This document shows, one piece after another, positions 5,667 through 34,672 of a stretch of DNA of 64,000 nucleotides; the first letter of the stretch is position 1; the number at the start of each line of letters is the position of its first letter. The position numbers were made by a program, and so were the translations under genes. Source of the stretch: a virus. The notes beneath the pieces are model-generated. The model was not told the DNA's origin and did no database searches. It worked only from the letters and a program-made list of their open reading frames with translations. The DNA lies in the IMG/VR virus record IMGVR_UViG_3300010157_000060, positions 7,672 to 71,671 of that record; one strand, given 5' to 3'.

Positions 5667-5667
5667 T

Positions 5668-8586: not shown

Positions 8587-8588
8587 CT

Positions 8589-20329: not shown

Positions 20330-21439
20330 ATGGCAACTGCCCTTAAAATAAACACGGCTACATCTCCAGTCTCTCTTAAAGAAATGTCGGGAACTGAGTT
20401 TGAGTATGCTATAAACCAGATGCTCACTACGTTCGCTGGAACGCAGACCGGTGTTGGAACTCTCTCCGTTAACCCAGCTAGCACTACTGGACTAACATCA
20501 ATAGGTACATTTACTGATACGTACATCAACGCTCTTCCTGGAGCGCATCCGGTCGGTACTACTCCCCTATCAGTAACTTACACTTTCTATCAAGATCAGG
20601 GCTCTGCGGCTGAGTCGCTGACTAGGCCAGTTGAGTACTCTGCGGGTCTAAAAGAGCAAGTTGACGCTAACTTAAATGCAGACCTCGTATCAAAAGCTCT
20701 TGCTAACTTAGTAGCTACTGGTGTTGGCTTCTACTCTCTGCAGCCAACTACTCCAACTGGCGGTACTTGGGTATCGATCTCTACGATCACGAATACTCTC
20801 GACTCAGCTACGACTAATACCACGCAGCTATGGAGAAAGACGGCTCCAGCTTCTTCTCCATCTACGGTTAGGACCATAAAGCTAGACGCGACTACTACTC
20901 CGAAGTCGATCAAGGAGATGTCGGACGCTGAGATACAGACACTCACTGCTCGCCTTAGGAACCAGATAGTCTCGACAGGCATCGGCAAGTACTCAGTTCA
21001 AGCTACCGCTCCAGCATCAGGTGGAACTTGGGTATCGTCAGGTACGGCCTTCTTAGACACTCGCAGGACAGCGACCGATACAGCGTACGTTCTCAACTAC
21101 ACCAAAGATTATACGGGCGCTTATACTAGAAACTACACCGGCGCTTATACTAGAACTTATACCGGCGTATATAGCAAGACGTTTACTGGCTCTTATAGCG
21201 GATCTTATCAAGCATCGTATAACGGATACTTTGGTGGCGTCACGCGATCGGGCTCTTACTTGGGTAACTATCTTCTGAGCTATACTGGAGCTTATAACGC
21301 TCTTGCTTACACCGGTGTGTACTCAGGACTAGTTAGCTTAACTTACAGTAAAGCTTATAGCACGAGCTTCTCTGGACAGACGTTAAATAGTGACAGCCCA
21401 ACAATTTCAACAGTCTACTTATGGGTAAGGACCGCTTAA
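20330..21439 (+). CDS. Putative virion structural protein with a Tyr-periodic repeat
   Basis: Internal duplication (SLKEMS / SIKEMS; GGTWVS twice) and a YTGAYTRN-type four-residue periodic tract. Confidence 0.65.
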   Translation: MATALKINTATSPVSLKEMSGTEFEYAINQMLTTFAGTQTGVGTLSVNPASTTGLTSIGTFTDTYINALPGAHPVGTTPLSVTYTFYQDQGSAAESLTRPVEYSAGLKEQVDANLNADLVSKALANLVATGVGFYSLQPTTPTGGTWVSISTITNTLDSATTNTTQLWRKTAPASSPSTVRTIKLDATTTPKSIKEMSDAEIQTLTARLRNQIVSTGIGKYSVQATAPASGGTWVSSGTAFLDTRRTATDTAYVLNYTKDYTGAYTRNYTGAYTRTYTGVYSKTFTGSYSGSYQASYNGYFGGVTRSGSYLGNYLLSYTGAYNALAYTGVYSGLVSLTYSKAYSTSFSGQTLNSDSPTISTVYLWVRTA

Positions 21440-21440
21440 T

Positions 21441-21893
21441 ATGGCAAGACAGATCATCAATCCTAGATGGGCGAATGATAAGAAGACGCACATCTTAGCA
21501 ACATTCAGGTACGATGACGGTAGGGAGATGGCCGCGTCGATAACTAACGTCGGCGATATCCAGAATCCTGATTGGAAAGAGATCATCGAGACGTTTGGAA
21601 CTGAGTACTTAGATAAAGCAGCAGATGACGCCCTAGCAGATCACATGCGCAGGAAGCAAGAGAGAGCTGAGCAGCAGAAGATAAACATAGAGAGGGCTGC
21701 TAAAGAAGCCCTATTCAACGTTAAAGCTGAGGCTTTTGATATGGACATCGTGAAGAACTCAAAGAACCGCGACATAAAGAACAAGATCCGCAGGGCGAGC
21801 ACGATGACCGAAGTGTACACCTACACTGCGCTTCTCCACATGCTAGAAGATCCTCTCGCTAATACGGACAACACAGCTTCAGCAAATACGTGA
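21441..21893 (+). CDS. Hypothetical protein
   Basis: 150-aa ORF tightly packed in the operon; charged helical C-terminal half. Confidence 0.65.
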   Translation: MARQIINPRWANDKKTHILATFRYDDGREMAASITNVGDIQNPDWKEIIETFGTEYLDKAADDALADHMRRKQERAEQQKINIERAAKEALFNVKAEAFDMDIVKNSKNRDIKNKIRRASTMTEVYTYTALLHMLEDPLANTDNTASANT

Positions 21894-21896
21894 TAT

Positions 21897-22661
21897 ATGA
21901 ATTGTGGTTATGTGTACGTTGCTTCGTGCAACAGTGAGTTCTATAGGGCGGCGATAAACTCTGCGGTATCTCTTCGGGACTACTACCCAGAAGCTAAGAT
22001 CGCACTCTTCACTCATGAGAAGTTCTTAAAAAAATCAGACGAGAAGTACTTCGATCACGTGCAGACTGGCATTCCGGTCAACGAGAGAGCGAAGATGTAC
22101 GGAATGGCGAGAACGCCGTTTGACCGCACGTTCTACATGGACTCTGATACTGAAATTAGATCTGAGAATATCAAAAAAGTGTTTGACATTCTTGGAGACT
22201 GTGATATAATGTTCACTAAGATAATACCACAAGTTTCCAAGGACGTATATATCGATGATGAAAATAACCTCCACTATCATGGTGGTGTGGTCCTCTACAA
22301 TAGCGATCCACTAACGATACAGCTGATGAGGGACTGGTACGAGTTCTACCAGTACCAGCAAAAATGCGAATGGAAAGAAAGCATATTCGCAGAGTACAGC
22401 GAGAAGATGAAACCATGGGACCAGTTCACCATGTGGTACCTTCTCTATAAGTACCCGAAGTACAGGGATATAAAGCACGACTTCTTTCCAAACGGTGGTA
22501 CTTCCTACAACTTCATATACCTGCTTGAAGAGAGAAGAGAGAAGTACAAAGACTACTACGACTTAGAGCAGATCGTCTACCACTATACTATTCCCGGAAT
22601 AAGGAAAGAAAATGCAGTCATTCTCAAGCCTCAATCCAGATCTTCTGAAGATTTTAACTGA
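21897..22661 (+). CDS. GT-A fold glycosyltransferase-like protein (GT8-like)
   Basis: GYVYVAS, SAVSLRDYYPE, TPFDRTFYMDSD (DxD), HGGVVLY, WDQFTMW. Confidence 0.75.
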   Translation: MNCGYVYVASCNSEFYRAAINSAVSLRDYYPEAKIALFTHEKFLKKSDEKYFDHVQTGIPVNERAKMYGMARTPFDRTFYMDSDTEIRSENIKKVFDILGDCDIMFTKIIPQVSKDVYIDDENNLHYHGGVVLYNSDPLTIQLMRDWYEFYQYQQKCEWKESIFAEYSEKMKPWDQFTMWYLLYKYPKYRDIKHDFFPNGGTSYNFIYLLEERREKYKDYYDLEQIVYHYTIPGIRKENAVILKPQSRSSEDFN

Positions 22662-23268
22662 GTTCAGCGACTTCTTCTACGGCCGAGACTTCTCTCACCT
22701 AGAGCCGCTGATCGGTAGCAACCCGAAGATGAAAGACGTCACGACTAAAGAGATGGGACCCACTGCGCTGAGTGATGAGTACTTGTTTGCAGGACTAGAT
22801 ACACCGCTGAAGTACGGCTTTCCTAGGCACTCTTTTGGTCTTGAGCTCCACTACGACAGGAAGTACATTCAGGACACGGAGCTTCTTGACCAGTGCCATA
22901 AGACCAACGATGAGCTCATGACGTTCTTTGGAGCTAGGAACAGCGCATTGCAGATGTTCTACCCGTCAGGCGGCTACATAGGATGGCACAACAACTGCAA
23001 CGCTGCTGGGTACAACATCATACTGTCATGTAACCCCGGCGGAGATGGGTACTTCAAGCACTACGATCACGTCAATAAGGTGTTCAACAACTTCCCTGAC
23101 CAGAGAGGTTGGAACTGCAAAGTCGGGTACTTTGGTTCTGACAAAGAGCCGGAGAAGATCTTCTGGCACTGCGCAGGAACTAACACACCTCGATTAACTT
23201 TCAGCTACATCATCTACGATGAGAACATCTGGAAAGACATGATCGACGACATCAACTACGATGGTTAA
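22612..23268 (+). CDS. Cupin/2OG-Fe(II) oxygenase-like protein
   Basis: YPSGGYIGWHNN and FWHCAGTNTPRLTFSY; has HxN where HxD is expected. Confidence 0.55.
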   Translation: MQSFSSLNPDLLKILTEFSDFFYGRDFSHLEPLIGSNPKMKDVTTKEMGPTALSDEYLFAGLDTPLKYGFPRHSFGLELHYDRKYIQDTELLDQCHKTNDELMTFFGARNSALQMFYPSGGYIGWHNNCNAAGYNIILSCNPGGDGYFKHYDHVNKVFNNFPDQRGWNCKVGYFGSDKEPEKIFWHCAGTNTPRLTFSYIIYDENIWKDMIDDINYDG

Positions 23269-23974
23269 CTTCATATGCTTAAAGTGGGGAGATAAGTATG
23301 GACCCGAGTACGTCAATAGGCTATACAGGTCTATTCGGAGATATTATGACGGATGTTGTAGCTTTTATTGCTATACCGATTCTGGCTTGGACCTTGATAA
23401 CGAAATAGAGATCAGGGACATCTCTGTTCTAAGAAGAGAAAACTATAAGTGCTTTACTGTCGAGAAGATCTTCTTATTTGACTCAGGGGTCATCAGCGGT
23501 AAGTGCGTTCTCTTAGATCTGGACGTCTTGATCTTAGATAGCTTAACTGAGTACTTAGATGAGTACGACTTCTCTGAGCCTAGGTTCACGCTTAGCCACA
23601 AGCCTAACCAGAACTACCCACTATTTGCGGACTTGTTCTTCCAGTCCGGTCCTAACTACGTTAACAGCTCATTTGTTACTTGGAGAGATGGACAGCTCGA
23701 CTGGCTCAGGGAGTTCTTCATGGAGAACAGGGAGATCATCGAGTACAAGTACTTAGACCTAGATACGGCCATATTTCAGACATGCAGGAAGAAGCTTCGC
23801 TTTCATCCGCAGAGTATCATATACTCATATAATGCTTACAGGGAGAAGCTCAACTCCAAGATCACGTACTTCAATACCTCACATGGTCGAGGTCAAGAGC
23901 TGCACGAAGGCCCGCAGTGGGCTACAGACCTATGGAGGGGTCATGATAGTGAATCAGCACTCGGAGGTCGCTGA
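23261..23974 (+). CDS. Glycosyltransferase-like protein, paralog A
   Basis: ICLKWGDKYGPEYVNRL, FYCYTD, LLDLD (DxD), VNSSFVTW. Confidence 0.75.
   Translation: MVNFICLKWGDKYGPEYVNRLYRSIRRYYDGCCSFYCYTDSGLDLDNEIEIRDISVLRRENYKCFTVEKIFLFDSGVISGKCVLLDLDVLILDSLTEYLDEYDFSEPRFTLSHKPNQNYPLFADLFFQSGPNYVNSSFVTWRDGQLDWLREFFMENREIIEYKYLDLDTAIFQTCRKKLRFHPQSIIYSYNAYREKLNSKITYFNTSHGRGQELHEGPQWATDLWRGHDSESALGGR
23656..23687 (+). repeat. 32-bp direct repeat, copy 1 (copy 2 at 24918-24949)
   Basis: ctacgttaacagctcatttgttacttggagag is identical in GT paralogs A and C. Confidence 0.9.
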
Positions 23975-24551
23975 CCCTTCGCTGCTTCATGCTGGCGCTG
24001 TCTATCATATGAGAGAAGTACCTTATCTTGCCGTACTTGTTGATGAACGTGTCATCGCCGTAGTGCTCAGACGTGTGCTTGAAGACGTCGCTGAGTAGCA
24101 TCTCAGCTAAGAAAGCGTGCGACTTTCCTATCCACCCCATCACCGAGCTGTTTCCGTAGCAGAAGAACCTAGGATCGCGATCACTCATGTCCTTAGGCTT
24201 CCATAGAGTATCAACTAGAGTTACACTTTCTGTGTCGATATCATCTAAAAGAAACTCCAGTTTACCAAGTATGTTGACATCTAGGTCAAAGTACAAGTTA
24301 GTGCAATCATGATTGCACTTCTCAAATATGAGAATTTTATTCCACCAAGTGTCGAGCTCATACTCGTCTACTCTAGCGAACTGTATCGGTAAGTCAGAAG
24401 ACTCATCGCGATCAGTCAAGCATATCAACTCAAAGTCCCTGGATAAATACTTATCAATGAGTAAGTACAACCTCTCGACGTGCTCTTTGGTGTACTTTGG
24501 CTTCACGAGAACACAGTAGATCTTTATAATGGAAAAGACAGTCAAGTTCAT
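23922..24551 (-). CDS. Glycosyltransferase-like protein, paralog B (opposite strand)
   Basis: KYTKEHVERL, LICLTD, WWNKILIF, LYFDLD (DxD), GNSSVMGW, YGDDTFI. Start codon uncertain. Confidence 0.75.
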   Translation of the reverse strand: MNLTVFSIIKIYCVLVKPKYTKEHVERLYLLIDKYLSRDFELICLTDRDESSDLPIQFARVDEYELDTWWNKILIFEKCNHDCTNLYFDLDVNILGKLEFLLDDIDTESVTLVDTLWKPKDMSDRDPRFFCYGNSSVMGWIGKSHAFLAEMLLSDVFKHTSEHYGDDTFINKYGKIRYFSHMIDSASMKQRRVSDLRVLIHYHDPSIGL

Positions 24552-25248
24552 AACTCTAAAGTGGGGTACTAAGTACGGGCCTGAGTACGTGAACAGGCTC
24601 TACGATAGCATAAAGAAGACATACACGGGACCATTTGAGTTCTACTGCTTTACTGATAACAGCAGGGGTCTCAAGTGCAGGACGTACCCCATCGAGATGC
24701 TTCCTCATTTCAAGTCCAACGTATTCACTGTCTGCAAGCTAGACCTATTTAATAAGATGCCGATGGTCGGCCCGTACGTCCTGCTCGATCTCGATCTATT
24801 GATTCTCAAGGACCTCAAGCCTTACTTTAACGAGTACAATTTTGAAGAGCCTAGGATGATCTACAACTACTGGACAGATCCAGAGAGAATCTACAGGTCT
24901 TACTTTACTGGTGACTGCTACGTTAACAGCTCATTTGTTACTTGGAGAGGAGACCAGCTGAGGTGGATGTACGATAAGTTCGTTGAGAACAAAGAGATAG
25001 TCGGCTTCAGGTTCAAGACTTTCGATAAGTTCATCTTCTACAGCAGCAGAAAGAAGATCGGCTACCACCCGAGAAAAGTTGTCTACGCTTACAGCTTCGG
25101 CGCCGAGTACCCAGAGGACAGGGACATATACAAGTACAGACCTGAGTACTACATATCTATATTCAATACATCTCACAAGCAGGGAACTGAGCTGCACGAA
25201 GCCGGCGGCTGGGCTAAAGAGAAGTGGACGCAGTATGATCGGAATTAG
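24529..25248 (+). CDS. Glycosyltransferase-like protein, paralog C
   Basis: ITLKWGTKYGPEYVNRL, FYCFTD, LLDLD, VNSSFVTW, FNTSH-x-QGxELHE; clear paralog of 23261..23974. Confidence 0.75.
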   Translation: MEKTVKFITLKWGTKYGPEYVNRLYDSIKKTYTGPFEFYCFTDNSRGLKCRTYPIEMLPHFKSNVFTVCKLDLFNKMPMVGPYVLLDLDLLILKDLKPYFNEYNFEEPRMIYNYWTDPERIYRSYFTGDCYVNSSFVTWRGDQLRWMYDKFVENKEIVGFRFKTFDKFIFYSSRKKIGYHPRKVVYAYSFGAEYPEDRDIYKYRPEYYISIFNTSHKQGTELHEAGGWAKEKWTQYDRN

Positions 25249-25849
25249 AGAAGAGATAAGAAGAATACATGAGATCTTATTTGAGGACTTTCTCAAGAAG
25301 CAGCACAAGTACGTGTACAGGCTATTTGAGATACACAATGACGCTCACATCAATAACAGGAACTACTACGTCTTCGAGATCATAAAGAAGAACTTCTCAG
25401 ATCTCAAGAAAGTAGTGATCATCAACAGCAGTAACCCAATACCTCTATGTCACTTCTTCAAGTCAGAGTACGACAGCGATATTACTCTGATATCAGATCA
25501 CCCATCTTTTGAGTTCACACAGAAGTTCTTCTCTGATTTCTTTAAGACAAATAACATCATAAAGAGCGCTTTCTTTGATGATCTAAGTGATGATATCAAG
25601 GGAGCAGACCTAGTGATCTTTCCAGAGTTCGAGTACATGGTGCCACTTGACATGCTCAAGTACTACAACGAGGGCACGATGACCATGGCAGTGCACCACA
25701 TAGCGCACGTCAACGATCACAACAGCCGGATGATGATCATGACTGAGCACGACTTACTTGAAGAGTGCAACTTCGACGAGGTGATAGACTCAGGGAGGAC
25801 CAAGAACTCCGATGGCAGAAATATATTCTACTCTTTGGGAATTCGGTAA
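25235..25849 (+). CDS. Hypothetical protein, possibly a degenerate Rossmann/methyltransferase-like fold
   Basis: Likely start is the ATG at 25235 (MIGIREE) overlapping the previous stop. KKVVII and ADLVIF strand pattern; no GxGxG. Confidence 0.45.
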   Translation: MIGIREEIRRIHEILFEDFLKKQHKYVYRLFEIHNDAHINNRNYYVFEIIKKNFSDLKKVVIINSSNPIPLCHFFKSEYDSDITLISDHPSFEFTQKFFSDFFKTNNIIKSAFFDDLSDDIKGADLVIFPEFEYMVPLDMLKYYNEGTMTMAVHHIAHVNDHNSRMMIMTEHDLLEECNFDEVIDSGRTKNSDGRNIFYSLGIR

Positions 25850-26502
25850 CTAGGATCTGCCGCGGTCATCTGCTTCATGAGATCATCTAGCCAGTGGTGA
25901 TCTACTCTCTTAACGTACTTAGCGTTCTCATTCTCAGCTATGATATCTGACAAGGTATCATCGTTTATCCGTATAGGAAAATCAAAGGCCTTCTCAAGCT
26001 GAGATAAGTACCTACCCCTGTAGAGATACAAGAGCTCAGTCGATACGTAGATCGGATCGTACTTGTAGAGTACTCTGTCTATCTCTTTGAGTAGAGCTGG
26101 GTAAGTTATCTTCTTCCTAACTCTCATCTGCTGGTACTTGAGTATGTTCACTTCTCTCCCAATAACTCCAACTTTCACTTCAAAGCCGGCTTCAATAGCC
26201 CTGCGGATGAACATCTCGTAGTCAGGTACTTCCATTGGGAGTCCCGTCATATCTGGGCTATTTCCCTTAGTCATGTACGGGCACGAGATGCTCGTGTAGT
26301 AGTTACCATTTAAGAACTCTCCTCTCTTGAATAGGTCTGGATTTTTCCAGTAGAGGTTGAAGGTCTCTTGACCGTGCAGCACCCAGTACTCCTGCGTTAG
26401 CTCTTTCCAGCCGATAACATCTGGATGATTGCTGATGATCTTACTCCACAGGTGATTTCCAGATCCCTGCGGGCCAGTAAATATGAGAAGCTTCTTAGAC
26501 AT
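25828..26502 (-). CDS. Sulfotransferase-like / P-loop fold protein 1
   Basis: N-terminal LLIFTGPQGSGNHLWSKII-x2-HP resembles the sulfotransferase 5'-PSB loop; VGVIGRE. Confidence 0.5.
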   Translation of the reverse strand: MSKKLLIFTGPQGSGNHLWSKIISNHPDVIGWKELTQEYWVLHGQETFNLYWKNPDLFKRGEFLNGNYYTSISCPYMTKGNSPDMTGLPMEVPDYEMFIRRAIEAGFEVKVGVIGREVNILKYQQMRVRKKITYPALLKEIDRVLYKYDPIYVSTELLYLYRGRYLSQLEKAFDFPIRINDDTLSDIIAENENAKYVKRVDHHWLDDLMKQMTAADPSYRIPKE

Positions 26503-27253
26503 TCTTCACCCACTCAAAATAAAGCCGATCGTGGCTGTCCTTCTTTAATGTAGTCATAGTGCAGCCGAGATCAGCTGACATCTTGTAAGCGTACTCAAAG
26601 CTCCAAGGAAATAAGTCTATCCAGTATCCCTCTTTCCTGTTCTTTCCGGGGTTAACCCTAACGTAGATGGTACCTCCTGGAGAAGTGAGCTCAACGACCC
26701 TCTTCATCCTGACAGCTACGTCCTCATAAGATCCGAAGTTTATGCTGCCGAACACGAGAACGTGATCGTAGGTGTTGTCAGGAACTCTGAAGTCCAGCAC
26801 GTCGACCATGAAGTCTGCGCACCTGTTGTATATGTCGATTCCAACGAGGTTGTTGATCTTCCCCTTGAACTGGTTGTATCCACAGCCGACGTCTAAGACG
26901 GCTTTTGGGTCTTGAGAGTTGATCCTGTTCACGATCTCCCATCCAGTATACTGGTAGTCATCAGTTCTTGGAGTCCAAGTTCCGTTGTACTCAAAGAAGC
27001 GCTTCCTGTACTTCTCATCTATCTCATCTACTAGATCGCCCAGAGTACGGCTGAAGTCCAGCTCAAACTCATATACGTTCTCAACTGCTTCTTTGAACTT
27101 CTCTAGTCTCTTAGGAGTCCACGGCAGTGAAGAGATGATGGTCTCTCTTTGAGCATCTAAGTTCAAGTGCGCGTACTTCTGTAGTTTGAAGTAAGACTCA
27201 AGAGATTCTTTCACAAAAGCAAAAATTTTCTTATTTGTCACTTTTTTTCCCAA
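26495..27253 (-). CDS. Class I SAM-dependent methyltransferase 1 with an N-terminal extension
   Basis: VLDVGCG motif I, LVGID, YDHVLVFGSINFG, PGG; TTG start. Confidence 0.75.
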   Translation of the reverse strand: MGKKVTNKKIFAFVKESLESYFKLQKYAHLNLDAQRETIISSLPWTPKRLEKFKEAVENVYEFELDFSRTLGDLVDEIDEKYRKRFFEYNGTWTPRTDDYQYTGWEIVNRINSQDPKAVLDVGCGYNQFKGKINNLVGIDIYNRCADFMVDVLDFRVPDNTYDHVLVFGSINFGSYEDVAVRMKRVVELTSPGGTIYVRVNPGKNRKEGYWIDLFPWSFEYAYKMSADLGCTMTTLKKDSHDRLYFEWVKNV

Positions 27254-27267
27254 TCAATAAGAAATTC

Positions 27268-27286
27268 ATATATATACTATATATAT
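27268..27286. promoter_or_regulatory. Palindromic AT element in the divergent intergenic region; candidate bidirectional promoter
   Basis: ATATATATA-C-TATATATAT is a perfect inverted repeat. TATATATA is one mismatch from TATAAATA and reads the same on both strands. Confidence 0.4.
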
Positions 27287-27321
27287 CATGAAGATGCTTA
27301 AATTTCTCCGGAGGAATAAAA

Positions 27322-28017
27322 ATGTCAGTAGAAGACTGGAACAAAGCCACGAGCGCGTGGGAGTACACTAAGACTAGAAGCAAGTACCACTTCGACACCC
27401 ACATTCGAGACATGAGATGGGACACGGTGATCGGTCTCGGTAAGCTTACCGGAGACTGGCAAGAAGAGCTCGCGCAGCAAGTTGAAGCTTCAACGCCGGT
27501 GACCATCGCCACTCGCAGGAACCAGTGGAGGCGCGAGCACGACAAGGTAAAGCTCAATACAGCCGAGACTAACGACTTCGTAGAGGTCGGCGCAGACCCA
27601 GAGATGACCATCTTCAGGGTACAGCATGACTTATCACCTACTTTCCAGAAGATGGTAGATATGATCGGGCTAGACCATCATGAATCTAGGCTTCACGTTC
27701 AGTATCCGGGAGAAGCTTTTCTCGGTCACGTCGATCGCTTTGACTTGAACTGGCCCGGAGTTGACCCAGAGAACTTGATCCGCATCGGTGTCATGCTCAA
27801 GGACTATGAGCAGGGGCACTTCTTCCAGTTCGGCAACCACCTCTACCAGTTCTGGCGCGCCGGGGACATACACACGTTTGACTACTGGAGCGTACCACAC
27901 TATACCGCGAACAGCGGTCTATCTCCAAGAGTGACGCTGTTCACTACTGGAATTATTACTGACAAGACGCGTGAGTTCTTAAAGAGCGCGCGCCGCACGA
28001 CTGAAATACTAATCTAA
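27322..28017 (+). CDS. 2OG-Fe(II) dioxygenase-like protein (Asp/Asn beta-hydroxylase-like motif spacing)
   Basis: HVQYPGEAFLGHVD (HxD), WRAGD, PHYTANSGLSPR; strong SD GGAGGA. Confidence 0.6.
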   Translation: MSVEDWNKATSAWEYTKTRSKYHFDTHIRDMRWDTVIGLGKLTGDWQEELAQQVEASTPVTIATRRNQWRREHDKVKLNTAETNDFVEVGADPEMTIFRVQHDLSPTFQKMVDMIGLDHHESRLHVQYPGEAFLGHVDRFDLNWPGVDPENLIRIGVMLKDYEQGHFFQFGNHLYQFWRAGDIHTFDYWSVPHYTANSGLSPRVTLFTTGIITDKTREFLKSARRTTEILI

Positions 28018-28033
28018 AATCATAGGAAGTGAA

Positions 28034-29473
28034 ATGAACATTTTTCCATTATTTGACCAAACTGCGGGGTTTGCGCTCATCGCGTTCTACGCGGTGGCCG
28101 TGTTCTTCTTAACGAGCTTCTTCTCTAAGGGGTTCGACAGCAGCAAAGAGAGCTTCTTGGTAGCCAACCGAGAGATCGGTTTCTTTCAGGGAACTTTCTC
28201 TGCTGGAGCTAGCTGGATTCACGCACCGGGTCTATTTGTCGCGGCCCAGCAGGGATATAACAATGGTTGGCCGGGAGTCTTCTGGTTCAGCTTCGGTAAC
28301 TTCTTCAGCTACATCGTCTTCGCGTACTTCATCAATAAGTTCCGGAACGACAACGGTAAGATCTTTACGCTGAGTGAGTACTTCAAGGGAAAATGGGGAG
28401 GCTTCATCAGCTTCTTAGTTCTACTCCAGCTCTTGCTCTTGACTCTTCAGTCGCTGACAATTGACTTGTTTGCCGGTACTCAGAGCGTCGCTCTCTTGAC
28501 CGGAATTAACCCGATGCTGATCTCAGCTCTACTAGTAGGTATCGCGCTGACTTACTCACTTCGCGGTGGAATCAAGGCGTCGATCGTCACTGACGTGATC
28601 AAGATCCTCATGATCTTCGTGGGCGTAGCAGTCGTCGGCTATACGGTGTACAGCACGACTGGAGTACAGCCTATCATCGATGGTATGGCCGGTAAGTCTG
28701 GAAAGGGAACATCTCTTTGGAGTGACAGCTTCGCTCTTGGCCTTCTCTTCGGCTTTGGTATACCTACGGTCATCGGTCACTTTGCCTCAGCTTGGACGAC
28801 CAATGAAGGGTACCAGAACGCCTTCGCTATGAAGCCGAACGTTGCACTCTGGGCGTACATCGCAGCTCCGTTCTGCTGGTTAGTTCTCCAGCTCATCGGT
28901 GGACCTCTCGGTATGATCGCTGCCGGCTTGCACATCGATGCTGGAACTAAGTCCGGCTTCGTCAACTTGATGGTTATGGCTCAAGTCGTTGGTCCATGGC
29001 TAGTGCTGGTGTTCTTGATGACGGTCTTCGCCGGCCTCATCAGCATCATCGACACGATGCTCATCAACAGCGCCAACATGGTGGGAAGTGACTTCCACGA
29101 CTACTTCAAGGGAAAGAACCCAGTTCTCTGGAGTCGAGTAGCCATGATCGTCTTCGCTGCGATCGGTATCTTACTCGCTAACATTCCGGGGCTAGATCTA
29201 AACACGATCTTCCTCTTCGGAAAGACGTTCCAGTTATGCTTCTTCATTCCAGTAGTGATAGGAGTAGTCGCTCCTCACTTCCTCACTAAGTGGGGATTCA
29301 TCTCAGGAGCGGCAGTTGGTTCTCTCGTTGGCTCTCCTCTCTATGTTTACGGGCTTCTCTTCGGCGGTGGTCCTAACATCCAAGTTACTGGAACTCTGAT
29401 CCAAGTATTTGGTGCTGGTATCGTATGCTACGTAGTTAGTAAGTACACAGCAAAGAGAGAAGCGATTGCATGA
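28034..29473 (+). CDS. Sodium:solute symporter (SSS) family transporter
   Basis: 479 aa, polytopic membrane protein. ESFLVANR, ASWIHAP, TLSEYF, YSLRGGIKASIVTDVI and SIIDTML are SSS motifs. Confidence 0.85.
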   Translation: MNIFPLFDQTAGFALIAFYAVAVFFLTSFFSKGFDSSKESFLVANREIGFFQGTFSAGASWIHAPGLFVAAQQGYNNGWPGVFWFSFGNFFSYIVFAYFINKFRNDNGKIFTLSEYFKGKWGGFISFLVLLQLLLLTLQSLTIDLFAGTQSVALLTGINPMLISALLVGIALTYSLRGGIKASIVTDVIKILMIFVGVAVVGYTVYSTTGVQPIIDGMAGKSGKGTSLWSDSFALGLLFGFGIPTVIGHFASAWTTNEGYQNAFAMKPNVALWAYIAAPFCWLVLQLIGGPLGMIAAGLHIDAGTKSGFVNLMVMAQVVGPWLVLVFLMTVFAGLISIIDTMLINSANMVGSDFHDYFKGKNPVLWSRVAMIVFAAIGILLANIPGLDLNTIFLFGKTFQLCFFIPVVIGVVAPHFLTKWGFISGAAVGSLVGSPLYVYGLLFGGGPNIQVTGTLIQVFGAGIVCYVVSKYTAKREAIA

Positions 29474-29931
29474 AGAAGATACTAATCTTCGGGCTGCCAG
29501 GGTCGGGTAAGACGACTCTGGCGAGAGCTCTAGTTCCTAGACTGAGAGCCGTTCACTGGAACGCAGATTCAGTCAGGGCTAACATAAACACCCATCTCGG
29601 TTTCTCTGAGAGTGACAGAGAAGAGCAAGCTAGGAGAATGGGCTGGCTATGCGATCAGGTAGTTAAATCAGGGAACTACGCGATCGCGGACTTCGTCTGC
29701 CCAACTAAAGCAACTCGTGATATATTTGGACCGTGCTATAAGATATGGATGAACACCATAGATGAGAGCCGCTTTGAGGACACGAACAAGATGTTCGAGG
29801 TACCTAAGCACGATGGCTTCGACCTGTGCATTAATAAGTGGAACGCTGAGTTCTGGGCTAAGTACATAGCAGAAGAGCTAGACTACATAGAGAAACCTAC
29901 ATTCGTGAAAACACTATTGAGGAACTTATAA
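29470..29931 (+). CDS. Adenylylsulfate (APS) kinase-like P-loop kinase
   Basis: ILIFGLPGSGKTTLA, NADSVR, LGFSESDREEQARR, DFVCP, FEVP; CysC-like but short. Confidence 0.75.
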   Translation: MKKILIFGLPGSGKTTLARALVPRLRAVHWNADSVRANINTHLGFSESDREEQARRMGWLCDQVVKSGNYAIADFVCPTKATRDIFGPCYKIWMNTIDESRFEDTNKMFEVPKHDGFDLCINKWNAEFWAKYIAEELDYIEKPTFVKTLLRNL

Positions 29932-29932
29932 G

Positions 29933-30295
29933 ATGTTTGATTGGAAGAAACCAACTGTGCAGCTTCTGGGAAGGTACCAGCCGTGGCATCCGGGACACAC
30001 TGAGCTCTTTAAGAGAGCGCACGCGAAAACAGGTCAGGTCTGCATCATGGTGCGTGACACGCAGGGCACTGACGAGAAGAACCCGTTTGATCTCTTCGCT
30101 GTAGCGAATTACATTAAAGAAGCACTCGGTAAAGAGGGCTTTGAGAGCGGAGTCGACTACGTTATCGTGGATGTTCCAAACATCGTGAACATCACCTACG
30201 GCCGTGATGTTGGATACACCATCGAGAAAGAGGACTTTGACAAAGAGATCCTCAAGATCTCAGCCACTCAGATCCGCAAAGAGATGGGCTTGTGA
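29933..30295 (+). CDS. Stand-alone HxGH nucleotidyltransferase (cytidylyltransferase-like)
   Basis: LGRYQPWHPGH and C-terminal ISATQIR. Confidence 0.8.
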   Translation: MFDWKKPTVQLLGRYQPWHPGHTELFKRAHAKTGQVCIMVRDTQGTDEKNPFDLFAVANYIKEALGKEGFESGVDYVIVDVPNIVNITYGRDVGYTIEKEDFDKEILKISATQIRKEMGL

Positions 30296-30942
30296 GCTAC
30301 ATATTCTTTGCTGGAGCTCCAGGATCAGCTTGGAGTAAAGTAGCTAAGAGCATATACTACTCACACGGCGTTGACCAAAGTGACTACTCAGATGATAGGA
30401 CGTATCACTTCTCCGATGGAGATGGAAAAGATCTGGACCACATCGGTAGCTACTTTGGTCCCGGAATGGAGTTTGGAAACTTATTTGATACTAACTTATC
30501 TAGGTACGACAAGAGAACTCTTGAGAGTGAGTTCAACGCCCCGTTCTCTGGAACGGGCTGGAGAATCATAAAGAGCCACTGCTTTTCTGATAACATAGAG
30601 TTCTTGAGATCTACTTGGCCAAAATCTCCGGTAGTCATATCTCTTAGGTCAGATGAGGACTGCCTCTACTGGTGGAAGTACGTTGGGCACTTTAATATCC
30701 CGTACCCGAGCTACGATTACTTTAGAGTTGAGAATGACGATCATCTATATACTAAGAGCTTGAATAACATATACGACTATATCAAGAAGAATAATAGAAA
30801 TATAGAGAAGTCACTTCTCAAGATTGGGTCAGCAAAGAAGATCATAGATAATAAGCAGCTGTGCGATTATCTAGGGTTAGAGTACCCAGAGGACTACATG
30901 AACTACGATCTAGAGTCAACTAACGTTTACGTGGTGAGATGA
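30292..30942 (+). CDS. Sulfotransferase-like / P-loop fold protein 2
   Basis: YIFFAGAPGSAWS, IIKSH, WPKSPVVISLR match the sulfotransferase layout; GTG start overlapping the previous stop. Confidence 0.5.
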   Translation: MSYIFFAGAPGSAWSKVAKSIYYSHGVDQSDYSDDRTYHFSDGDGKDLDHIGSYFGPGMEFGNLFDTNLSRYDKRTLESEFNAPFSGTGWRIIKSHCFSDNIEFLRSTWPKSPVVISLRSDEDCLYWWKYVGHFNIPYPSYDYFRVENDDHLYTKSLNNIYDYIKKNNRNIEKSLLKIGSAKKIIDNKQLCDYLGLEYPEDYMNYDLESTNVYVVR

Positions 30943-31559
30943 TGAAGATATTTGAATTAATGAAAACGGAGCCAGATGAAGTTCTCTGGGAGTTCGCCAA
31001 TGATGTTCATACGGCTATAGTTGACCTGTATTTCAGCAAGTACTGGATAAGCAGGTCTTACACATTTGAGCAGACCGGAGATGCTCTTATTAAAAAAGTA
31101 AATGATCTCAATCCGGAGTCAGTACTTGACGCCGGATGCGGTACCAACTACTTCAAGGGAAAGATCCAGAACTTAATTGGAATAGATCCCTTCAGCGATG
31201 CAGCTGACGTAAAGCAGGACTTCAGTGAGTACTATCTATCCAACCCCGGAAAGCAGTTCGATGTAGTTCTAGCACTCGGGTCTGTGAACTTTGGTCTCAG
31301 GGACAAGATACTATTTGAAGTGGACTTATTAGATAAGATGACGAAGTCGGGCGGTCATCAGTTCTGGAGAGTAAATGCCGGTAGGGCTGATCACGATTGC
31401 GATCACTTTCCGCTAGCGAACTTAATTGACTTCTACCCATGGAATAAGGACTTCGTAGAAGAGATAGCTAAGATCTACAACTACGAGATCCTCGAGTTCG
31501 GCTTTGAGCGCAACATTACTGATCATGAGAGGGTGTACTTCACTTTTTATAAATACTAA
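30939..31559 (+). CDS. Class I SAM-dependent methyltransferase 2
   Basis: VLDAGCG, LIGIDP, FDVVLALGSVNFG; paralog of 26495..27253. Confidence 0.75.
   Translation: MMKIFELMKTEPDEVLWEFANDVHTAIVDLYFSKYWISRSYTFEQTGDALIKKVNDLNPESVLDAGCGTNYFKGKIQNLIGIDPFSDAADVKQDFSEYYLSNPGKQFDVVLALGSVNFGLRDKILFEVDLLDKMTKSGGHQFWRVNAGRADHDCDHFPLANLIDFYPWNKDFVEEIAKIYNYEILEFGFERNITDHERVYFTFYKY
31548..31555 (+). promoter_or_regulatory. T4-type late promoter
   Basis: TATAAATA just before the second fibre cluster. Confidence 0.7.
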
Positions 31560-31577
31560 AAAATAAGGTGTTTATAA

Positions 31578-31904
31578 ATGGCCCAGAAGATCAATCTAGT
31601 CATCGATCAAGGTACTACGTTCTATACTACTTTCATCATCAATGACGACGCCGGCGTTCCGATAAACTTCACTAGTTATAACGGAACTGCGATGATGCGC
31701 AAGCACTACACCTCAACGAACGCCACCTCATTCACCGTGACAGCCAACAGCACTGGTGGAGTAAGCTTATCGATGAACTCAAACACTACCTCCAGCTTAG
31801 TGGCTGGAAGGTACGTATACGACGTTGAGCTCGTAGCTCCAGCGAACACGACATCTCGAGTAGTTGAGGGTATAGTCACCGTAACACCTCAGGTGACTAG
31901 ATAA
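31578..31904 (+). CDS. Small virion structural/adaptor protein (BppU N-terminal-like Ig fold)
   Basis: INLVIDQGTTF, GRYVYDVEL, RVVEGIVTVTPQVT. Confidence 0.65.
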   Translation: MAQKINLVIDQGTTFYTTFIINDDAGVPINFTSYNGTAMMRKHYTSTNATSFTVTANSTGGVSLSMNSNTTSSLVAGRYVYDVELVAPANTTSRVVEGIVTVTPQVTR

Positions 31905-32158
31905 TGACTGCTGTCACAGTTCACACCAGATCAGCCAACATCAAAGTAAAGTCTATATCCGGAGTCTTCACTCCGGTGCCCGGAAGCGCAGTGACCTTAA
32001 ACAACCAAGGATCGGTTGCCGGCGCAGCACAGAGACTAGATGGCATGGCCGACGTAGTAGAGGGAAGCACTCCCGCTAATAACTACACACTTGTATACCA
32101 CTCACTAGACGATAAATACTACGTCGAACCATTAAATTTAGACGGGGGAAGTTTCTAA
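31904..32158 (+). CDS. Small fibre-associated protein ending LDGGSF
   Basis: 84 aa; LDGMADV, TLVY, and the same C-terminal hexapeptide as the next gene. Confidence 0.6.
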   Translation: MTAVTVHTRSANIKVKSISGVFTPVPGSAVTLNNQGSVAGAAQRLDGMADVVEGSTPANNYTLVYHSLDDKYYVEPLNLDGGSF

Positions 32159-34672
32159 ATGTCAAATCTTATTCAGATAAAGAGATCTCTGAATACTGCC
32201 GCCCCTACATCATTAGCTAACGGTGAACTTGCCTATACTGCGAACGGTGATACCCTCGCTATAGGATCTAACGGTAGTATAGTATACATCGGAGGTAAGA
32301 GAAACCCCGGTGTCCTAACAGCGAATCAGGCGCTAGTCGCCAACTCAAGTAGCGCGATCGACAAGATCAACGTCGCTAACTTAGTTCCAACTTACATCTA
32401 CGCCAACGGTGCTTTTGGTACTGCTAACCAGTTCCTGACTGCCAACTCAACGGGCGGAGTCTACTGGTTAACTCCAGCTCCTTCTGTTACCGGCTCTAAT
32501 ACGCAGATCCAGTTCAACGACTCTGGAACTCTTAACGCTTCGGCTGGATTCATATTCAATAAGTCTACTAACACGGTCACTGTGTCGAACAACATGGTCG
32601 TTCTCCAGAAGCTCAACGTCGGCAACGCTGCCGGTTTCGACTTTGGAGCGACTGCCGCAATCGAGATCGACGGTAGCACCAACAGCTACATGCAGTCCAT
32701 TATCCAGAACGCGAACACCGGAAATAACGCGTCGTCTGACTTGGTCATAACCGCCGACACCGGCAACGACTCAGTTAACTTTGTCGACTTCGGTATCAAC
32801 AGCTCAACTTACGCCAACGCTCTGTTCAATATAACTGGAGCTCTCGATGCCTACCTCTACACATCTGACAGCCACCTAGCTATCGGTACGGCATCTGCTA
32901 CAAAAGAGCTCATATTCCACGCCGGTGGAACGACCTCAACTGACAGGAAGCTCACTGTTAACGCCTCATCGGTCAAGGTCAATACCTCTATTCAGTTCTT
33001 GGTGGGCGGCGAGTTCATAGCTAACTCAACTGGAGCTTATCACACTGGCGTAGTGAACGCGGCAACTCACAGCTCTGGCAATGGATTTACTGCCAACTCA
33101 ACTCTGGTGAACGCGGCCGCGATCAACGTGGTCAACCAAGTCAATACGGCTACTCTCTACGCCACCACCACGGTAAACGTTGGATCTCTAGTTCAAGCCA
33201 ACACCACTGCGCTTCTGGTTGGTTCTAACTCCACCGTCAATACGGTCATAACGCCTACATCGATCACTCAGGCGAACACGACGACCACTACTATGGTGGC
33301 CAACATAACCGGCATCTACCACAGCGGTACAATAAACGCGGCATCGCATACTGTTGGTACCTCTACTATCGCTAACTCGTCCGGCGTGTACACCACTGGC
33401 ACGATCAACTCGGCTTCGTTCACAACGACCGGCGTGACCGTCAACACCACTCAGGTATCGGTTGGCGCTAACTCATACATGAACGCGACAACGTACTTCG
33501 TTGGTAACTCCACTGTCAACACGAACATCTCGGCTGGCAGCATTGTCGTCAACGGCGCGATCACGGCTAACAACACCGGCGTATCACCGGCATCTAATAC
33601 TACCGGCACTGCGCTTGGTTCTGCTACAGCTAGGTTCGTTATCAACGCGAACACGATCAACGCTTCTGGCCTAATAACTGGAACAGCAGGCGCGGATATA
33701 ACAGGTACGGCCAACGCGTCGACGTCGATGTACGTTGGAGCTAACGTCTACTCAAATACGACAGCTAAGGCCGTTGGTAACTCTACCGTCAACGCGTACT
33801 TCACGTCATCTCTGTTCAGCGTAACGAACTCGACTTCTTCTGCTAACTTGCAGGCGGGCGTATTGACAATAGGAACGTCGGTGGTCAACACCACGGCGAT
33901 CGCAGTCGGTGATCTAGTAGTCAATGGTAACACGATAATCGGGTCTAATACGCAGGATATCGTAACTCTGAACGCTCTGGTCAACACCGCGATCATGCCT
34001 AACGCGAACGCGACGTACAACCTCGGTAACACCTCAATGAGGTGGAACGAAGTTCATGCTGCCAACGTTCACTCAGTCAAAGGATACTTTGATGGCGACG
34101 TTCAGATCTCCGGTAACTTAGTCGTTCTCGGTACTTCGGTGACGATCAACGTCTCCTCGGTCTCAGTTACCGACTCACTCCTAGAGCTGGCATCGAACAA
34201 CAACACGAACGACTTGATAGATATTGGTCTATTTGGTCACTACGAGTCCGGTCTAGCTCCAAATGAGCACGCAGGATTCTTCAGGGACGCATCTGACAAC
34301 GGTATATTCAAGTTCTTCCAAGGACTAACTGAACAGCCAACGACTACGGTAAACACCGCAGCCGCATCTTACTCTCAGGCTACAGTTCAAGCTTACTTGC
34401 TAGCGAGCGCCCTGATAGCCAACTCGACTGTCACCAACATAACAGCTAACAGCACGGTCTCAGTCGGCATCGTCGCGAATACGCTGACGCTATCTACGGC
34501 GCTCTCTGGTATATACGGTGGTACTGGCTTAACGACGTACACGCAAGAAGATATACTCGTAGCGAACAGCACTAACGGATTCAGGAAGCTATCACTTGGA
34601 TCCGACGGCTACGTTCTCCAGTCAAATGGAACTGCGCTCGTATACAACACACTTGATGGTGGATCTTTCTAA
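32159..34672 (+). CDS. Long fibre-like virion protein 2
   Basis: N-terminal IQIKRS...SLANGELAY head seen on phage fibres; GSNTQIQFND; YNLGNTSMRW; ends LDGGSF. Confidence 0.75.
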   Translation: MSNLIQIKRSLNTAAPTSLANGELAYTANGDTLAIGSNGSIVYIGGKRNPGVLTANQALVANSSSAIDKINVANLVPTYIYANGAFGTANQFLTANSTGGVYWLTPAPSVTGSNTQIQFNDSGTLNASAGFIFNKSTNTVTVSNNMVVLQKLNVGNAAGFDFGATAAIEIDGSTNSYMQSIIQNANTGNNASSDLVITADTGNDSVNFVDFGINSSTYANALFNITGALDAYLYTSDSHLAIGTASATKELIFHAGGTTSTDRKLTVNASSVKVNTSIQFLVGGEFIANSTGAYHTGVVNAATHSSGNGFTANSTLVNAAAINVVNQVNTATLYATTTVNVGSLVQANTTALLVGSNSTVNTVITPTSITQANTTTTTMVANITGIYHSGTINAASHTVGTSTIANSSGVYTTGTINSASFTTTGVTVNTTQVSVGANSYMNATTYFVGNSTVNTNISAGSIVVNGAITANNTGVSPASNTTGTALGSATARFVINANTINASGLITGTAGADITGTANASTSMYVGANVYSNTTAKAVGNSTVNAYFTSSLFSVTNSTSSANLQAGVLTIGTSVVNTTAIAVGDLVVNGNTIIGSNTQDIVTLNALVNTAIMPNANATYNLGNTSMRWNEVHAANVHSVKGYFDGDVQISGNLVVLGTSVTINVSSVSVTDSLLELASNNNTNDLIDIGLFGHYESGLAPNEHAGFFRDASDNGIFKFFQGLTEQPTTTVNTAAASYSQATVQAYLLASALIANSTVTNITANSTVSVGIVANTLTLSTALSGIYGGTGLTTYTQEDILVANSTNGFRKLSLGSDGYVLQSNGTALVYNTLDGGSF

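Follow-up and report, generated by a model that had tools for sequence, protein, structure and literature searches.

A putative phage sulfation cassette with a miniature adenylyltransferase-kinase pair

Why would a phage encode a full secondary transporter, a kinase, a very small nucleotidyltransferase and a sulfotransferase-like protein side by side? This question is raised by the viral contig IMGVR_UViG_3300010157_000060 of the IMG/VR database (completeness estimate 45%), of which we analysed positions 7,672 to 71,671, that is, 64 kb of 71.7 kb (hereafter the window). A preliminary description of the window, made from the sequence alone, had singled out four overlapping or abutting genes between positions 28034 and 30942 as a self-contained donor-supply module, and the listing of open reading frames (ORFs) matches these genes exactly. 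They are given below, with adenosine 5'-phosphosulfate abbreviated as APS, 3'-phosphoadenosine 5'-phosphosulfate as PAPS and pyrophosphate as PPi:

28034..29473, + strand: SSS-family (LeuT-fold) secondary transporter, 479 aa (PF00474, phrog_20720)
29470..29931, + strand: lid-less APS-kinase-like kinase, 153 aa; proposed to convert APS to PAPS (PF01583; alignment)
29933..30295, + strand: NT120, minimal HxGH adenylyltransferase, 120 aa; proposed to convert ATP and sulfate to APS and PPi (PF01467; fold; context)
30292..30942, + strand: ST216, sulfotransferase-fold protein, 216 aa, start codon GTG (N-terminal GAPGS loop; AlphaFold model)

The genes of transporter and kinase share 4 nt, a 1-nt gap separates the kinase gene from that of NT120, and further 4-nt overlaps join NT120 to ST216 and ST216 to the methyltransferase-like gene behind it (30939-31559). 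The genes also co-occur in relatives: in 19 of the 31 viral contigs that carry the transporter family, genes for a kinase and an NT120-type protein (NT) follow directly downstream in identical order. The four-gene arrangement is not due to chance. The four genes are part of a conserved cassette of greater extent, which further includes two methyltransferase-like genes, one cupin-like gene and a second gene of putative sulfotransferase fold; other viral contigs carry this set as well, with its order kept or slightly rearranged. In the window, the cassette lies amid tail genes, directly upstream of fibre-related genes.

The reading that we favour, and hold to be rather probable, is that the four genes form the core of a phage sulfation cassette that makes its own sulfate donor, used by two sulfotransferase-fold proteins. 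NT120 would transfer AMP from ATP to sulfate and so yield APS, as its genomic context suggests; the kinase, a trimmed APS-kinase homologue, would phosphorylate the 3'-OH of APS to give PAPS, as homology and motif-aligned residues suggest; and ST216 together with ST224, the second protein and one of putative sulfotransferase fold, would use PAPS on an acceptor in the cytoplasm, an activity to which their predicted folds point. The cupin-like protein (o231), the two methyltransferase-like proteins and the SSS transporter would probably prepare the substrate, decorate it further or supply it. Textbook sulfate activation knows two enzyme types, Sat and CysDN. NT120 is of neither type and looks like an adenylyltransferase akin to nicotinamide mononucleotide adenylyltransferases (NMNATs) that was recruited to APS formation, so that the pair of NT120 and kinase would represent a third, miniature kind of PAPS synthase. 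The same kind would also serve bacteria of the SAR86 and SAR11 types.

Enzymes of the four-gene core

Judged by profile and motif comparison, the APS-kinase homology is the firmest assignment of the gene set, and the CysC-like kinase of the preliminary description was borne out. The protein matches PF01583 (APS_kinase) with 53.2 bits at a cut-off of 21.1, over residues 4-84 only (profile positions 5-90 of 152). When aligned to the APS kinases 3cr7/1d6j (Penicillium, Thiobacillus), it keeps the P-loop and the D-x-V-R, LGFSexDR-E, RR and F-V-C-P motifs, which take the form of GLPGSGKT, D33-S-V-R36, LGFSESDREEQ, R55-R56 and F75-V-C-P78 in the window; in the structures of APS kinases, these motifs hold the adenine and the phosphosulfate of APS. 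Across 109 distinct sequences of the kinase family, the P-loop, D33, R36, F45-S46, R50, Q53, R56, D74-F-V-x-P78 and R83 are invariant or nearly so, with Q at position 53 in place of the canonical N. We read the protein as a trimmed, lid-less relative of APS kinases, with APS phosphorylation as its predicted activity.

Its neighbour NT120 matches PF01467 (CTP_transf_like) with 23.3 bits, just above the cut-off of 21, and carries GRYQPWHPGH and ISATQIR, its versions of the NMNAT-type motifs GRxQPxHxGH and ISxTxxR; the family as a whole has the motifs GRxQPWHxGH, NPF, VPNIxNIxYGRDVGY and ISATxIR. The structural model (predicted local distance difference test, pLDDT, 90.2) has the HxGH nucleotidyltransferase fold, so that profile, motifs and fold agree with the initial assignment as a 120-aa HxGH nucleotidyltransferase. 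The best fold matches were a NadM-type NMNAT (Z 10.5), phosphopantetheine adenylyltransferase (PPAT; Z 9.6), the M. jannaschii NMNAT (Z 9.5) and NadR (Z 8.6). Among ATP sulfurylases, the Thermus enzyme 1v47 reached Z 8.5 (root-mean-square deviation 3.1 over 114 residues), 4maf, 1r6x, 1j70 and 4dnx Z 5.6-5.9, and the bifunctional proteins 1x6v and 2gks Z 6.2 and 6.1. The likeness of NT120 to the catalytic domain of ATP sulfurylases is that of the general HxGH fold, which NMNATs and PPAT share with higher Z.

The sequence comparisons place NT120 between the known families. Kinship with Sat, which the preliminary description had considered, did not hold: NT120 has no PF01747 match, and hhalign aligned the NT family to two Sat sequences with a probability of 1%, over 22 columns at the HxxH turn. 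On the strength of this value the idea of a shrunken Sat was dropped. The YGRDVGY motif of the NT family and GRDHAG of the two Sat sequences have G-R-D in common, which, like the shared fold, we count in favour of APS formation. A plain NMNAT, which the preliminary description had named as a refuting case, is likewise not what we found. NT120 stays far below the NMNAT cut-offs (PRK01153, 30.5 versus 127 bits; TIGR01527, 23.7 versus 181.2 bits; NadM models, 17-23 versus 340-450 bits), its model covers no more than chain residues 1-135 when aligned to 1f9a (164 residues), and its ISATQIR motif occupies residues 109-115 of 120, with the protein ending 5 residues later. Set against the archaeal, NadM and NadR NMNATs that are its best matches (1f9a, 2qjt, 8x7f), NT120 shares GRxQPxHxGH and ISxTxxR, yet it is ~45 residues shorter, has the VPNIxNIxYGRDVGY motif and stands in the context of APS kinase, CysQ and sulfotransferases rather than of NAD genes. 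By these comparisons NT120 is neither a Sat-family member nor a regular NMNAT, and is best described as an NMNAT-like HxGH adenylyltransferase.

For the 216-aa protein, the proposed sulfotransferase likeness stands at the level of fold and lacks a sequence-family match of its own, as ST216 matched no model in Pfam, PHROG or NCBIfam. With its AlphaFold model (pLDDT 85.7), VIA ranked sulfotransferases in all of the first 7 places among 48,161 chains (Z 10.9-8.8), namely TPST1 (10.9), a tick TPST (10.4), TPST2 (10.2), Stf1 (9.7), Stf9 (9.6), an olefin-synthase sulfotransferase (OLS-ST; 9.4) and 3rnl (8.8), followed by isopentenyltransferases (Z 8.8-8.6) and, from Z 8.2, by P-loop kinases. Foldseek matches were weak (best 5tiv, E 1.3e-2), and one ST216 homologue reached 23.5 bits with PF13469, below the cut-off of 27. 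The second of the two sulfotransferase-like proteins mentioned in the preliminary description is ST224, which is encoded on the - strand outside the four-gene core. It matched no Pfam, PHROG, NCBIfam or PDB profile, and its likeness is one of models: the Atlas model (predicted template modelling score, pTM, 0.79) gave template modelling (TM) scores of 0.55-0.63 to clusters of PF13469 and PF00685, scores that lie 'under the bar'. The ST216 and ST224 families are not alike in hhalign (probability 0.6%). Relatives of ST224 were found in 18 of the first 80 viral loci centred on NT genes. The Atlas cluster nearest to ST224 comprises 9,886 members, 99% of them viral, of ~185 aa and with no Pfam family; it is a very common phage protein family that may be sulfotransferase-like.

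The kinase-adenylyltransferase pair across viruses and cells

The NT family is very large, with 434 confirmed stretches in IMG/VR, 494 stretches in species genomes and more than 5,000 clusters at 90% identity; a search of the 50% library at E<=1e-3 returned 1,038 representatives. NT genes have a kinase gene as immediate neighbour in 73 of 80 loci from viruses and 76 of 80 from cells; with a more sensitive search, the kinase was present in 142 of 159 NT-centred viral loci, and 87 of these 142 kinase ORFs measure 240-340 aa, i.e. they are fused to NT. The profile phrog_10255 likewise models kinase and NT as a single protein of 230 positions. Besides, NT is fused to a full canonical APS kinase in P0167 (311 aa; PF01583 E 5.7e-63, profile positions 2-151 of 152), a cluster of 7 members from several sources on contigs of up to 36 kb, and the reverse order is seen in P0240 (294 aa; PF01583 E 5.8e-59). 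In P0144 (395 aa), a DUF4118 membrane domain is joined to kinase and NT, making it a membrane-anchored form of the pair. Three further proteins, in which an NT-like N-terminus is followed by parts of chorismate synthase, dehydroquinate synthase or ubiquitin hydrolase (P0149, P0173, P0222), were set aside as probable chimeras of assembly or gene calling. In a tree of 65 rows, made up of the window and a sample from 239 NT sequences, the window NT groups with NTs of other transporter-bearing contigs (support 92/99), and in one well-supported clade phage sequences stand together with SAR11-like cellular ones.

The neighbours of the pair point to sulfate transfer. Sulfotransferase-like genes were found in 57 of the 159 NT-centred viral loci (1.52 Mb) versus none of 80 UvsY-centred control loci (0.64 Mb), a control that represents a conserved replication module and thus phage DNA generally, not variable islands. 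The median distance from sulfotransferase-like gene to NT in viral loci is 786 bp, and all seven sampled neighbours of this type (7/7) pass the Pfam sulfotransferase cut-offs. On the cellular side, the gene next upstream of the pair is cysQ, for a PAP phosphatase, in 38 of 80 loci, many of which are close relatives of one another; its identity is backed by TIGR01331 (292.6 bits, cut-off 228.8). Elsewhere the viral pair stands beside NAD-dependent epimerases (15 loci), and its other neighbours include carbamoyltransferase, DegT aminotransferase, CMP-sugar synthetase-like, UDP-glucose dehydrogenase and GT2 genes. Such sugar-modifying neighbours speak for glycan decoration in many phages.

Cellular genomes extend this picture. 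A complete SAR86 genome encodes two strong sulfotransferases, matches neither PF01747 nor PF01507 and has its sole APS-kinase-like gene beside NT. Among 101 genomes of the SAR86 order that are at least 80% complete, NT was present in 49, Sat in 1 and sulfotransferases in 55: 47 genomes have both NT and sulfotransferase, 2 NT alone, 8 sulfotransferase alone and 44 neither. Of the NT-positive genomes, 48 of 49 have neither Sat nor a strong PF01507 match, and strong matches of the CysD/CysH type were seen in 2 of the 101, both NT-negative. In at least 20 genomes of the order, a sulfotransferase gene lies 0.5-1 kb from NT. It is from the linkage, the fusions with canonical kinases, the sulfotransferase and CysQ neighbours, the missing ATP sulfurylase and the SAR86-order pattern taken together that we infer APS formation by NT120. 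The preliminary proposal of a minimal ATP sulfurylase that feeds PAPS synthesis is thus favoured by adjacency, fusions, neighbours and the genomes without Sat or CysD, and loses its element of Sat kinship.

Named phages carry related genes as well. In Ralstonia phage phiRSL1 (AB366653.2, 6995-13232), ORF238, annotated as 'APS kinase' (231 aa), is 48.5% identical to the window kinase over kinase residues 2-124; its length is about that of phrog_10255, and the match is established for the kinase part. Within 6 kb downstream of ORF238 lie two nucleotidyltransferase-like genes and ORF232, a 'sulfotransferase-like protein'. Two single proteins were met besides: AAY80_227 of Stenotrophomonas phage DLP6 (243 aa) is matched by the kinase only and may resemble ORF238, and gp35 of Xylella phage Sano (245 aa) is matched by both kinase and NT.

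Several points weigh against a self-supplying sulfation cassette. The functional steps of all its enzymes are deduced from sequences and models. The kinase stays below every NCBIfam APS-kinase cut-off (TIGR00455, 53.8 versus 138.7 bits; PRK03846, 50.4 versus 163; PRK00889, 50.3 versus 244), its family has N31-A-D33 where canonical APS kinases have D-G-D, and its lid is ~20 residues shorter than the canonical one. NT120 has its nearest sequences and folds among NMNATs (PRK01153, E 2.4e-7; 1f9a, E 0.0037; NadM by fold), with the hhalign value of 1% for Sat beside it. Neither ST216 nor ST224 has a significant sequence match to sulfotransferase models, and PDB profile searches returned nothing meaningful for them; moreover, residue 13 in the N-terminal GAPGSK loop of the window ST216 is A, whereas K is found there in at least 90% of 24 aligned family members, and this copy may be less active or altered. 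Among five cellular genomes with the pair, two also have Sat (three do not), as does one genome of the SAR86 sample (G406), which means that the pair does not replace Sat in every case. Since the genomes of the SAR86 order are related, their two-by-two counts are not independent events. As for the transporter, six of its loci extend 3 kb or more downstream and show no kinase-NT pair there (L257, L264, L267-L270); there it stands beside methyltransferase- or ST224-type genes, and in one locus alone, which ties it closer to these genes than to PAPS synthesis. Finally, we know of no SSS member that carries sulfate.

The alternative that survives best, and that we still regard as unlikely, is cofactor salvage. 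Here NT120 would be an NMN, phosphopantetheine or FMN adenylyltransferase, the kinase would act on its precursor or product, as in NadR or in the succession of PPAT and dephospho-CoA kinase, and the SSS protein would import a vitamin precursor in the manner of PanF, so that NAD or CoA would be rebuilt during infection. APS kinase and dephospho-CoA kinase do share their chemistry, in that both 3'-phosphorylate an adenylyl compound. For NT120, NMNATs come first in NCBIfam, among PDB sequences and by fold, with PPAT second, GRxQPxHxGH is a signature of the archaeal and NadM NMNATs, and panF matches the transporter weakly over its full length (E 0.0037). However, these NMNAT and PanF matches are far below their cut-offs (30.5 versus 127 bits for PRK01153; 16.4 versus 328 bits for panF), and NT120 ends soon after ISATQIR and aligns to part of 1f9a, as set out above. 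The kinase keeps the residues of the APS-kinase motifs, the fusions involve canonical APS kinases, and the neighbours are sulfotransferases and CysQ; none of the 42 neighbour clusters and 21 proteins that were scanned against Pfam proved to be an NAD or CoA gene.

A further alternative, which we consider quite improbable, restricts sulfation to the kinase: a phage CysC would work on APS made by the host, and NT120 would have an unrelated or supporting role, e.g. in regulation or another adenylylation. This would agree with the kinase being the most firmly assigned member of the set, with the pair-bearing genomes that have Sat, where APS could come from elsewhere, and with NT120 having no specific likeness to Sat. 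It leaves unexplained, though, why NT adjoins the kinase in nearly all viral and cellular loci and why the two are so often fused, and it offers no source of APS for the 48 NT-positive SAR86-order genomes without Sat or strong PF01507 matches, in an order where 47 of the 49 NT carriers have sulfotransferases.

How would a self-supplying pair compare with known systems? Bifunctional PAPS synthases (PAPSS1/2, 1x6v; the Aquifex Sat-APS kinase, 2gks; CysN-CysC) follow the same two-step logic, have a homologous kinase half (PF01583), often consist of a single polypeptide in either order and, like the pair, combine the kinase with an HxGH fold. Unlike them, the adenylyltransferase of the pair has 120 aa, is NMNAT-like, lacks the PUA-like N-domain and fits the Sat profile with the 1% probability noted above; its kinase, too, departs from theirs in the shorter lid and in N-A-D for D-G-D, and the pair is known from sequence. 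In rhizobia (NodP/NodQ/NodH) and Xanthomonas (RaxP/RaxQ/RaxST), a private PAPS supply stands beside a sulfotransferase and serves a special product rather than assimilation, and nod clusters have methyl- and carbamoyltransferases as neighbours. The cassette would follow the same logic of private supply, and some viral loci also have methyl- or carbamoyltransferase neighbours; yet the Nod and Rax sets use CysD/CysN/CysC homologues, whereas the cassette is viral and has an activating enzyme of another family. In the full-text literature, a scope that leaves subscription journals and supplements outside, we found no publication that describes a PAPS synthase like this one, be it phage-encoded or minimal.

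If the favoured reading holds, a 120-residue third type of ATP sulfurylase would revise the picture of sulfate activation, bear on how abundant marine bacteria without a recognised ATP sulfurylase use sulfotransferases, and give biotechnology a PAPS-regenerating module of very small size for use in enzymatic sulfation. Sulfation by phages, together with methylation and perhaps hydroxylation, would be an unexplored decoration made during infection and encoded in the variable tail-fibre region with its host-range determinants. In its most far-reaching form, NT120 would found a third ATP sulfurylase class, recruited independently, and form part of the smallest known PAPS synthase, the pair would supply the missing activation of sulfate in SAR86- and SAR11-type bacteria and in hundreds of phages, the SSS protein would be the first of its family to import sulfate, and a route self-contained from external sulfate onward would lead to sulfated (hydroxylated, methylated) tail-fibre or surface structures that alter adsorption or host recognition; that all of this is true at once strikes us as doubtful at best.

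The transporter and its possible substrates

With the transporter, the phage carries a full secondary transporter within what is probably a biosynthetic cassette. Its identity as an SSS symporter, as first described, was upheld by Pfam, where PF00474 (SSF) reached 51.6 bits at a gathering cut-off of 22.8 over most of the length (residues 41-416, profile positions 1-394 of 406); it also matches phrog_20720 (E 2.4e-60) and has 11 hydrophobic segments in a crude hydropathy scan. In comparison with the known SSS family (PutP, PanF, SGLT, DUR3), this match is of nearly whole length and DUR3 is best, yet the score stays below the superfamily cut-off (TIGR00813, 81.4 versus 184 bits). By the models compared, it belongs to none of the substrate-known subfamilies PanF, PutP and DUR3; the best solved relative is the urea carrier DUR3 (E 8.3e-9), over the N-terminal 200 residues only.

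The transporter family is small and mostly phage-borne, with ~38 close clusters and the 31 viral contigs mentioned above, 6 of which end at or just after the transporter gene. ST224- or ST216-type genes are present in 27 of the 31, and the MT252-type methyltransferase-like gene is the most constant neighbour. A tblastn search of phage records returned a single match, in an unannotated faecal phage record (29.8% identity), and a distant relative (P0447, E<=1e-40) occurs in 2 of 401 sampled genomes of the phylum with 27-28% identity.

What the transporter would carry can be given only tentatively. Import of sulfate is one possibility, and import of the acceptor or another precursor is, to us, an equally tentative one; any other substrate is slightly less likely. 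The 4-nt overlap with the kinase gene and the logic of self-sufficiency speak for sulfate. We also count towards it the complete SAR86 genome (CP097973.1, L164, 3649-4548), where the gene immediately preceding the kinase-NT pair encodes a relative of the YeiH-family 'putative sulfate export transporter', an arrangement seen in 1 of 80 cellular loci and with a score below the cut-off (107.7 versus 232.6 bits). Against sulfate stand the six pair-free transporter loci and DUR3 as best solved relative.

The gene order also recalls licABCD, the operon for phosphocholine decoration that consists of transporter, kinase, nucleotidyltransferase and transferase. By analogy, a solute would be imported, phosphorylated by the kinase, converted to an NMP-solute by NT120 and transferred by the 216-aa protein, as the preliminary description had offered for its second option. 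The matching order of overlapping or near-touching genes fits this scheme, as does the fact that among the viral contigs searched the transporter family occurs only in this cassette. No component is homologous, however. The kinase is APS-kinase-like, its residues align to motifs that bind adenylyl sulfate, and it is of neither the choline nor the sugar kinase type; the fold of the 216-aa protein is that of a sulfotransferase, not of LicD or a glycosyltransferase; and the pair comes without this transporter in 145 of 159 viral loci (14 have it) and in all 80 of the cellular ones. We therefore hold it very unlikely that the module activates an imported solute, and the option found no support.

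Least credible of all is the customary view of phage cysC, by which these would be auxiliary metabolic genes that aid the host in assimilating sulfur, with extra PAPS going to cysteine synthesis during infection: an APS-kinase homologue is present, but no PAPS/APS reductase was met among the window ORFs scanned against family libraries or the neighbour clusters scanned, the constant partners are sulfotransferase-fold and methyltransferase-like genes, and cellular carriers such as the complete SAR86 genome are without PF01507 reductases. That the cysC-like gene does not serve assimilation, as the preliminary description had held, fits the comparative evidence.

The wider cassette, candidate acceptors and the phage

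Around the four-gene core, the following features were listed (SAM, S-adenosylmethionine):

23922..24551, - strand: glycosyltransferase-like gene, 209 aa, at the island edge (phrog_1962 'glycosyltransferase', E 3.8e-10; no Pfam match)
24529..25248, + strand: second glycosyltransferase-like gene, 239 aa (phrog_1962, E 9.1e-5)
25235..25849, + strand: ORF with uncertain start (first in-frame ATG of frame 25079-25849)
25828..26502, - strand: ST224, putative sulfotransferase-fold protein (N-terminal GPQGSGNH loop; model comparison)
26495..27253, - strand: MT252, SAM-methyltransferase-like protein, 252 aa (Methyltransf_23/25/11, 17.8-17.9 bits, below cut-offs; DVGCGYNQF motif)
27254..27321, no strand: divergent intergenic region with two TATATATA elements (sequence inspection)
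27322..28017, + strand: o231, conserved 231-aa protein (H-x-D...H...R pattern)
30939..31559, + strand: MT206, second SAM-methyltransferase-like protein, MT252 paralogue (Methyltransf_23, 17.8 bits versus cut-off 27)
31548..31555, + strand: T4-type late-promoter motif TATAAATA (exact match; precedes fibre-related genes)
31578..34672, + strand: fibre-related genes of 108, 84 and 837 aa, candidate acceptors (PHROG for the 108-aa protein)

At the left edge, the first glycosyltransferase-like gene is syntenic with the cassette in the close relatives L005, L244, L262 and L265. These four and L031 also have copies of the next two genes, beside the cassette and with 62-75% identity for the second glycosyltransferase-like gene, and with 39-54% identity for the ORF at 25235..25849, the part of which used as query (25340-25849, starting inside the frame) had no Pfam or PHROG match. 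MT206 is ~30% identical to MT252-type genes by tblastn. In the o231 family, H136, D138, H193 and R203 are invariant among 11 aligned sequences; the protein has no Pfam match, and a PDB profile search gave only a weak match, to the C-terminal 46 residues of the alkylsulfatase AtsK (E 0.033). From the motif pattern and this one match, the cupin-like protein o231 may tentatively be guessed to be a 2-oxoglutarate (2OG)/Fe(II) dioxygenase or hydroxylase. The window encodes another 2OG-Fe(II) oxygenase (41737-42423; PF13759, phrog_81), which lies between the small and large terminase genes, and hhalign gave a probability of 0.6% between the o231 family and this protein.

Which acceptor would be sulfated? 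The crude hydropathy scan found no hydrophobic segments in the cassette outside the transporter, so that all enzymes are predicted to be soluble and would meet their acceptor in the cytoplasm. Virion modification, the purpose proposed in the preliminary description, is a hypothetical outcome, to be weighed with this solubility and with the lack of an exact late-promoter motif inside the cassette (see below). A glycan is our tentative first choice; a protein, e.g. one of the neighbouring fibre proteins, appears less likely, and so, to the same degree, does a small molecule. Among the fibre-related proteins, that of 108 aa matches phrog_1084 (E 5.2e-25) and phrog_3304, 'L-shaped tail fiber protein assembly' (E 1e-23), and that of 837 aa has no match in Pfam or PHROG. 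A precedent for protein acceptors comes from Iyer et al. 2010 (PMC2938197), who described predicted bacterial operons that combine 2OG dioxygenases, methyltransferases, sulfotransferases and PAPS synthetases with phage tail-collar or collagen-like proteins, for which hydroxylation followed by sulfation of the co-encoded fibre-like proteins is proposed. The gene kinds are the same as in the cassette, which lies upstream of fibre-related genes and includes in ST216 a TPST-like fold; yet the operons described there are bacterial and have standard PAPS synthetases, and the dioxygenase likeness of o231 amounts to the pattern and the weak match just given. No tail-collar or collagen domain was detected among the window proteins scanned.

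As to timing, nine exact copies of TATAAATA occur in the window (3424, 10289, 31548, 44029, 47184, 48823, 52593, 53676, 57255), where 1.3 would be expected by chance; all are on the + strand, each just upstream of a structural gene, and as a set they look like T4-type late promoters. The exact motif is absent from 20330-31547 and hence from within the cassette, and the nearest copy, at 31548, belongs to the gene that follows. The divergent intergenic region that parts the cassette into halves (27254-27321) contains, in an AT-rich near-palindrome, two TATATATA elements 9 bp apart, each of which is one mismatch away from TATAAATA and reads alike on both strands; judging from this layout, the region may be a bidirectional promoter or operator.

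By its PHROG matches, the window phage is a T4-like myovirus. These matches include baseplate wedge genes (3436-10391), sheath, tube, portal, prohead protease, scaffold and major capsid protein, and in addition UvsY, a UvsW-type helicase, a gp55-type late sigma factor, a gp46/47-type nuclease and a peptide deformylase. The capsid protein is nearest to that of Stenotrophomonas phage DLP6 (70%), followed by Methylophilales phage Melnitz (64%), Pelagibacter myophages (62-63%) and cyanomyophages (62%). A DNA search with 27300-31600 against 50,697 phage records gave zero matches. Among the sequencing runs checked, no RNA run was listed as containing the cassette, and two public DNA runs contain much of it, with the labels aquatic (share 0.75) and freshwater (share 0.35). 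Beyond the cassette, a second tail-tube-like gene (57287-57844; phrog_45, E 2.6e-33) lies beside uvsY and far from the main tube gene (46625-47164), and the baseplate genes are followed by a gene for a protein of 2,051 aa (10401-16556) with DUF4815 and phrog_358 matches (1029.5 bits, E printed as 0).

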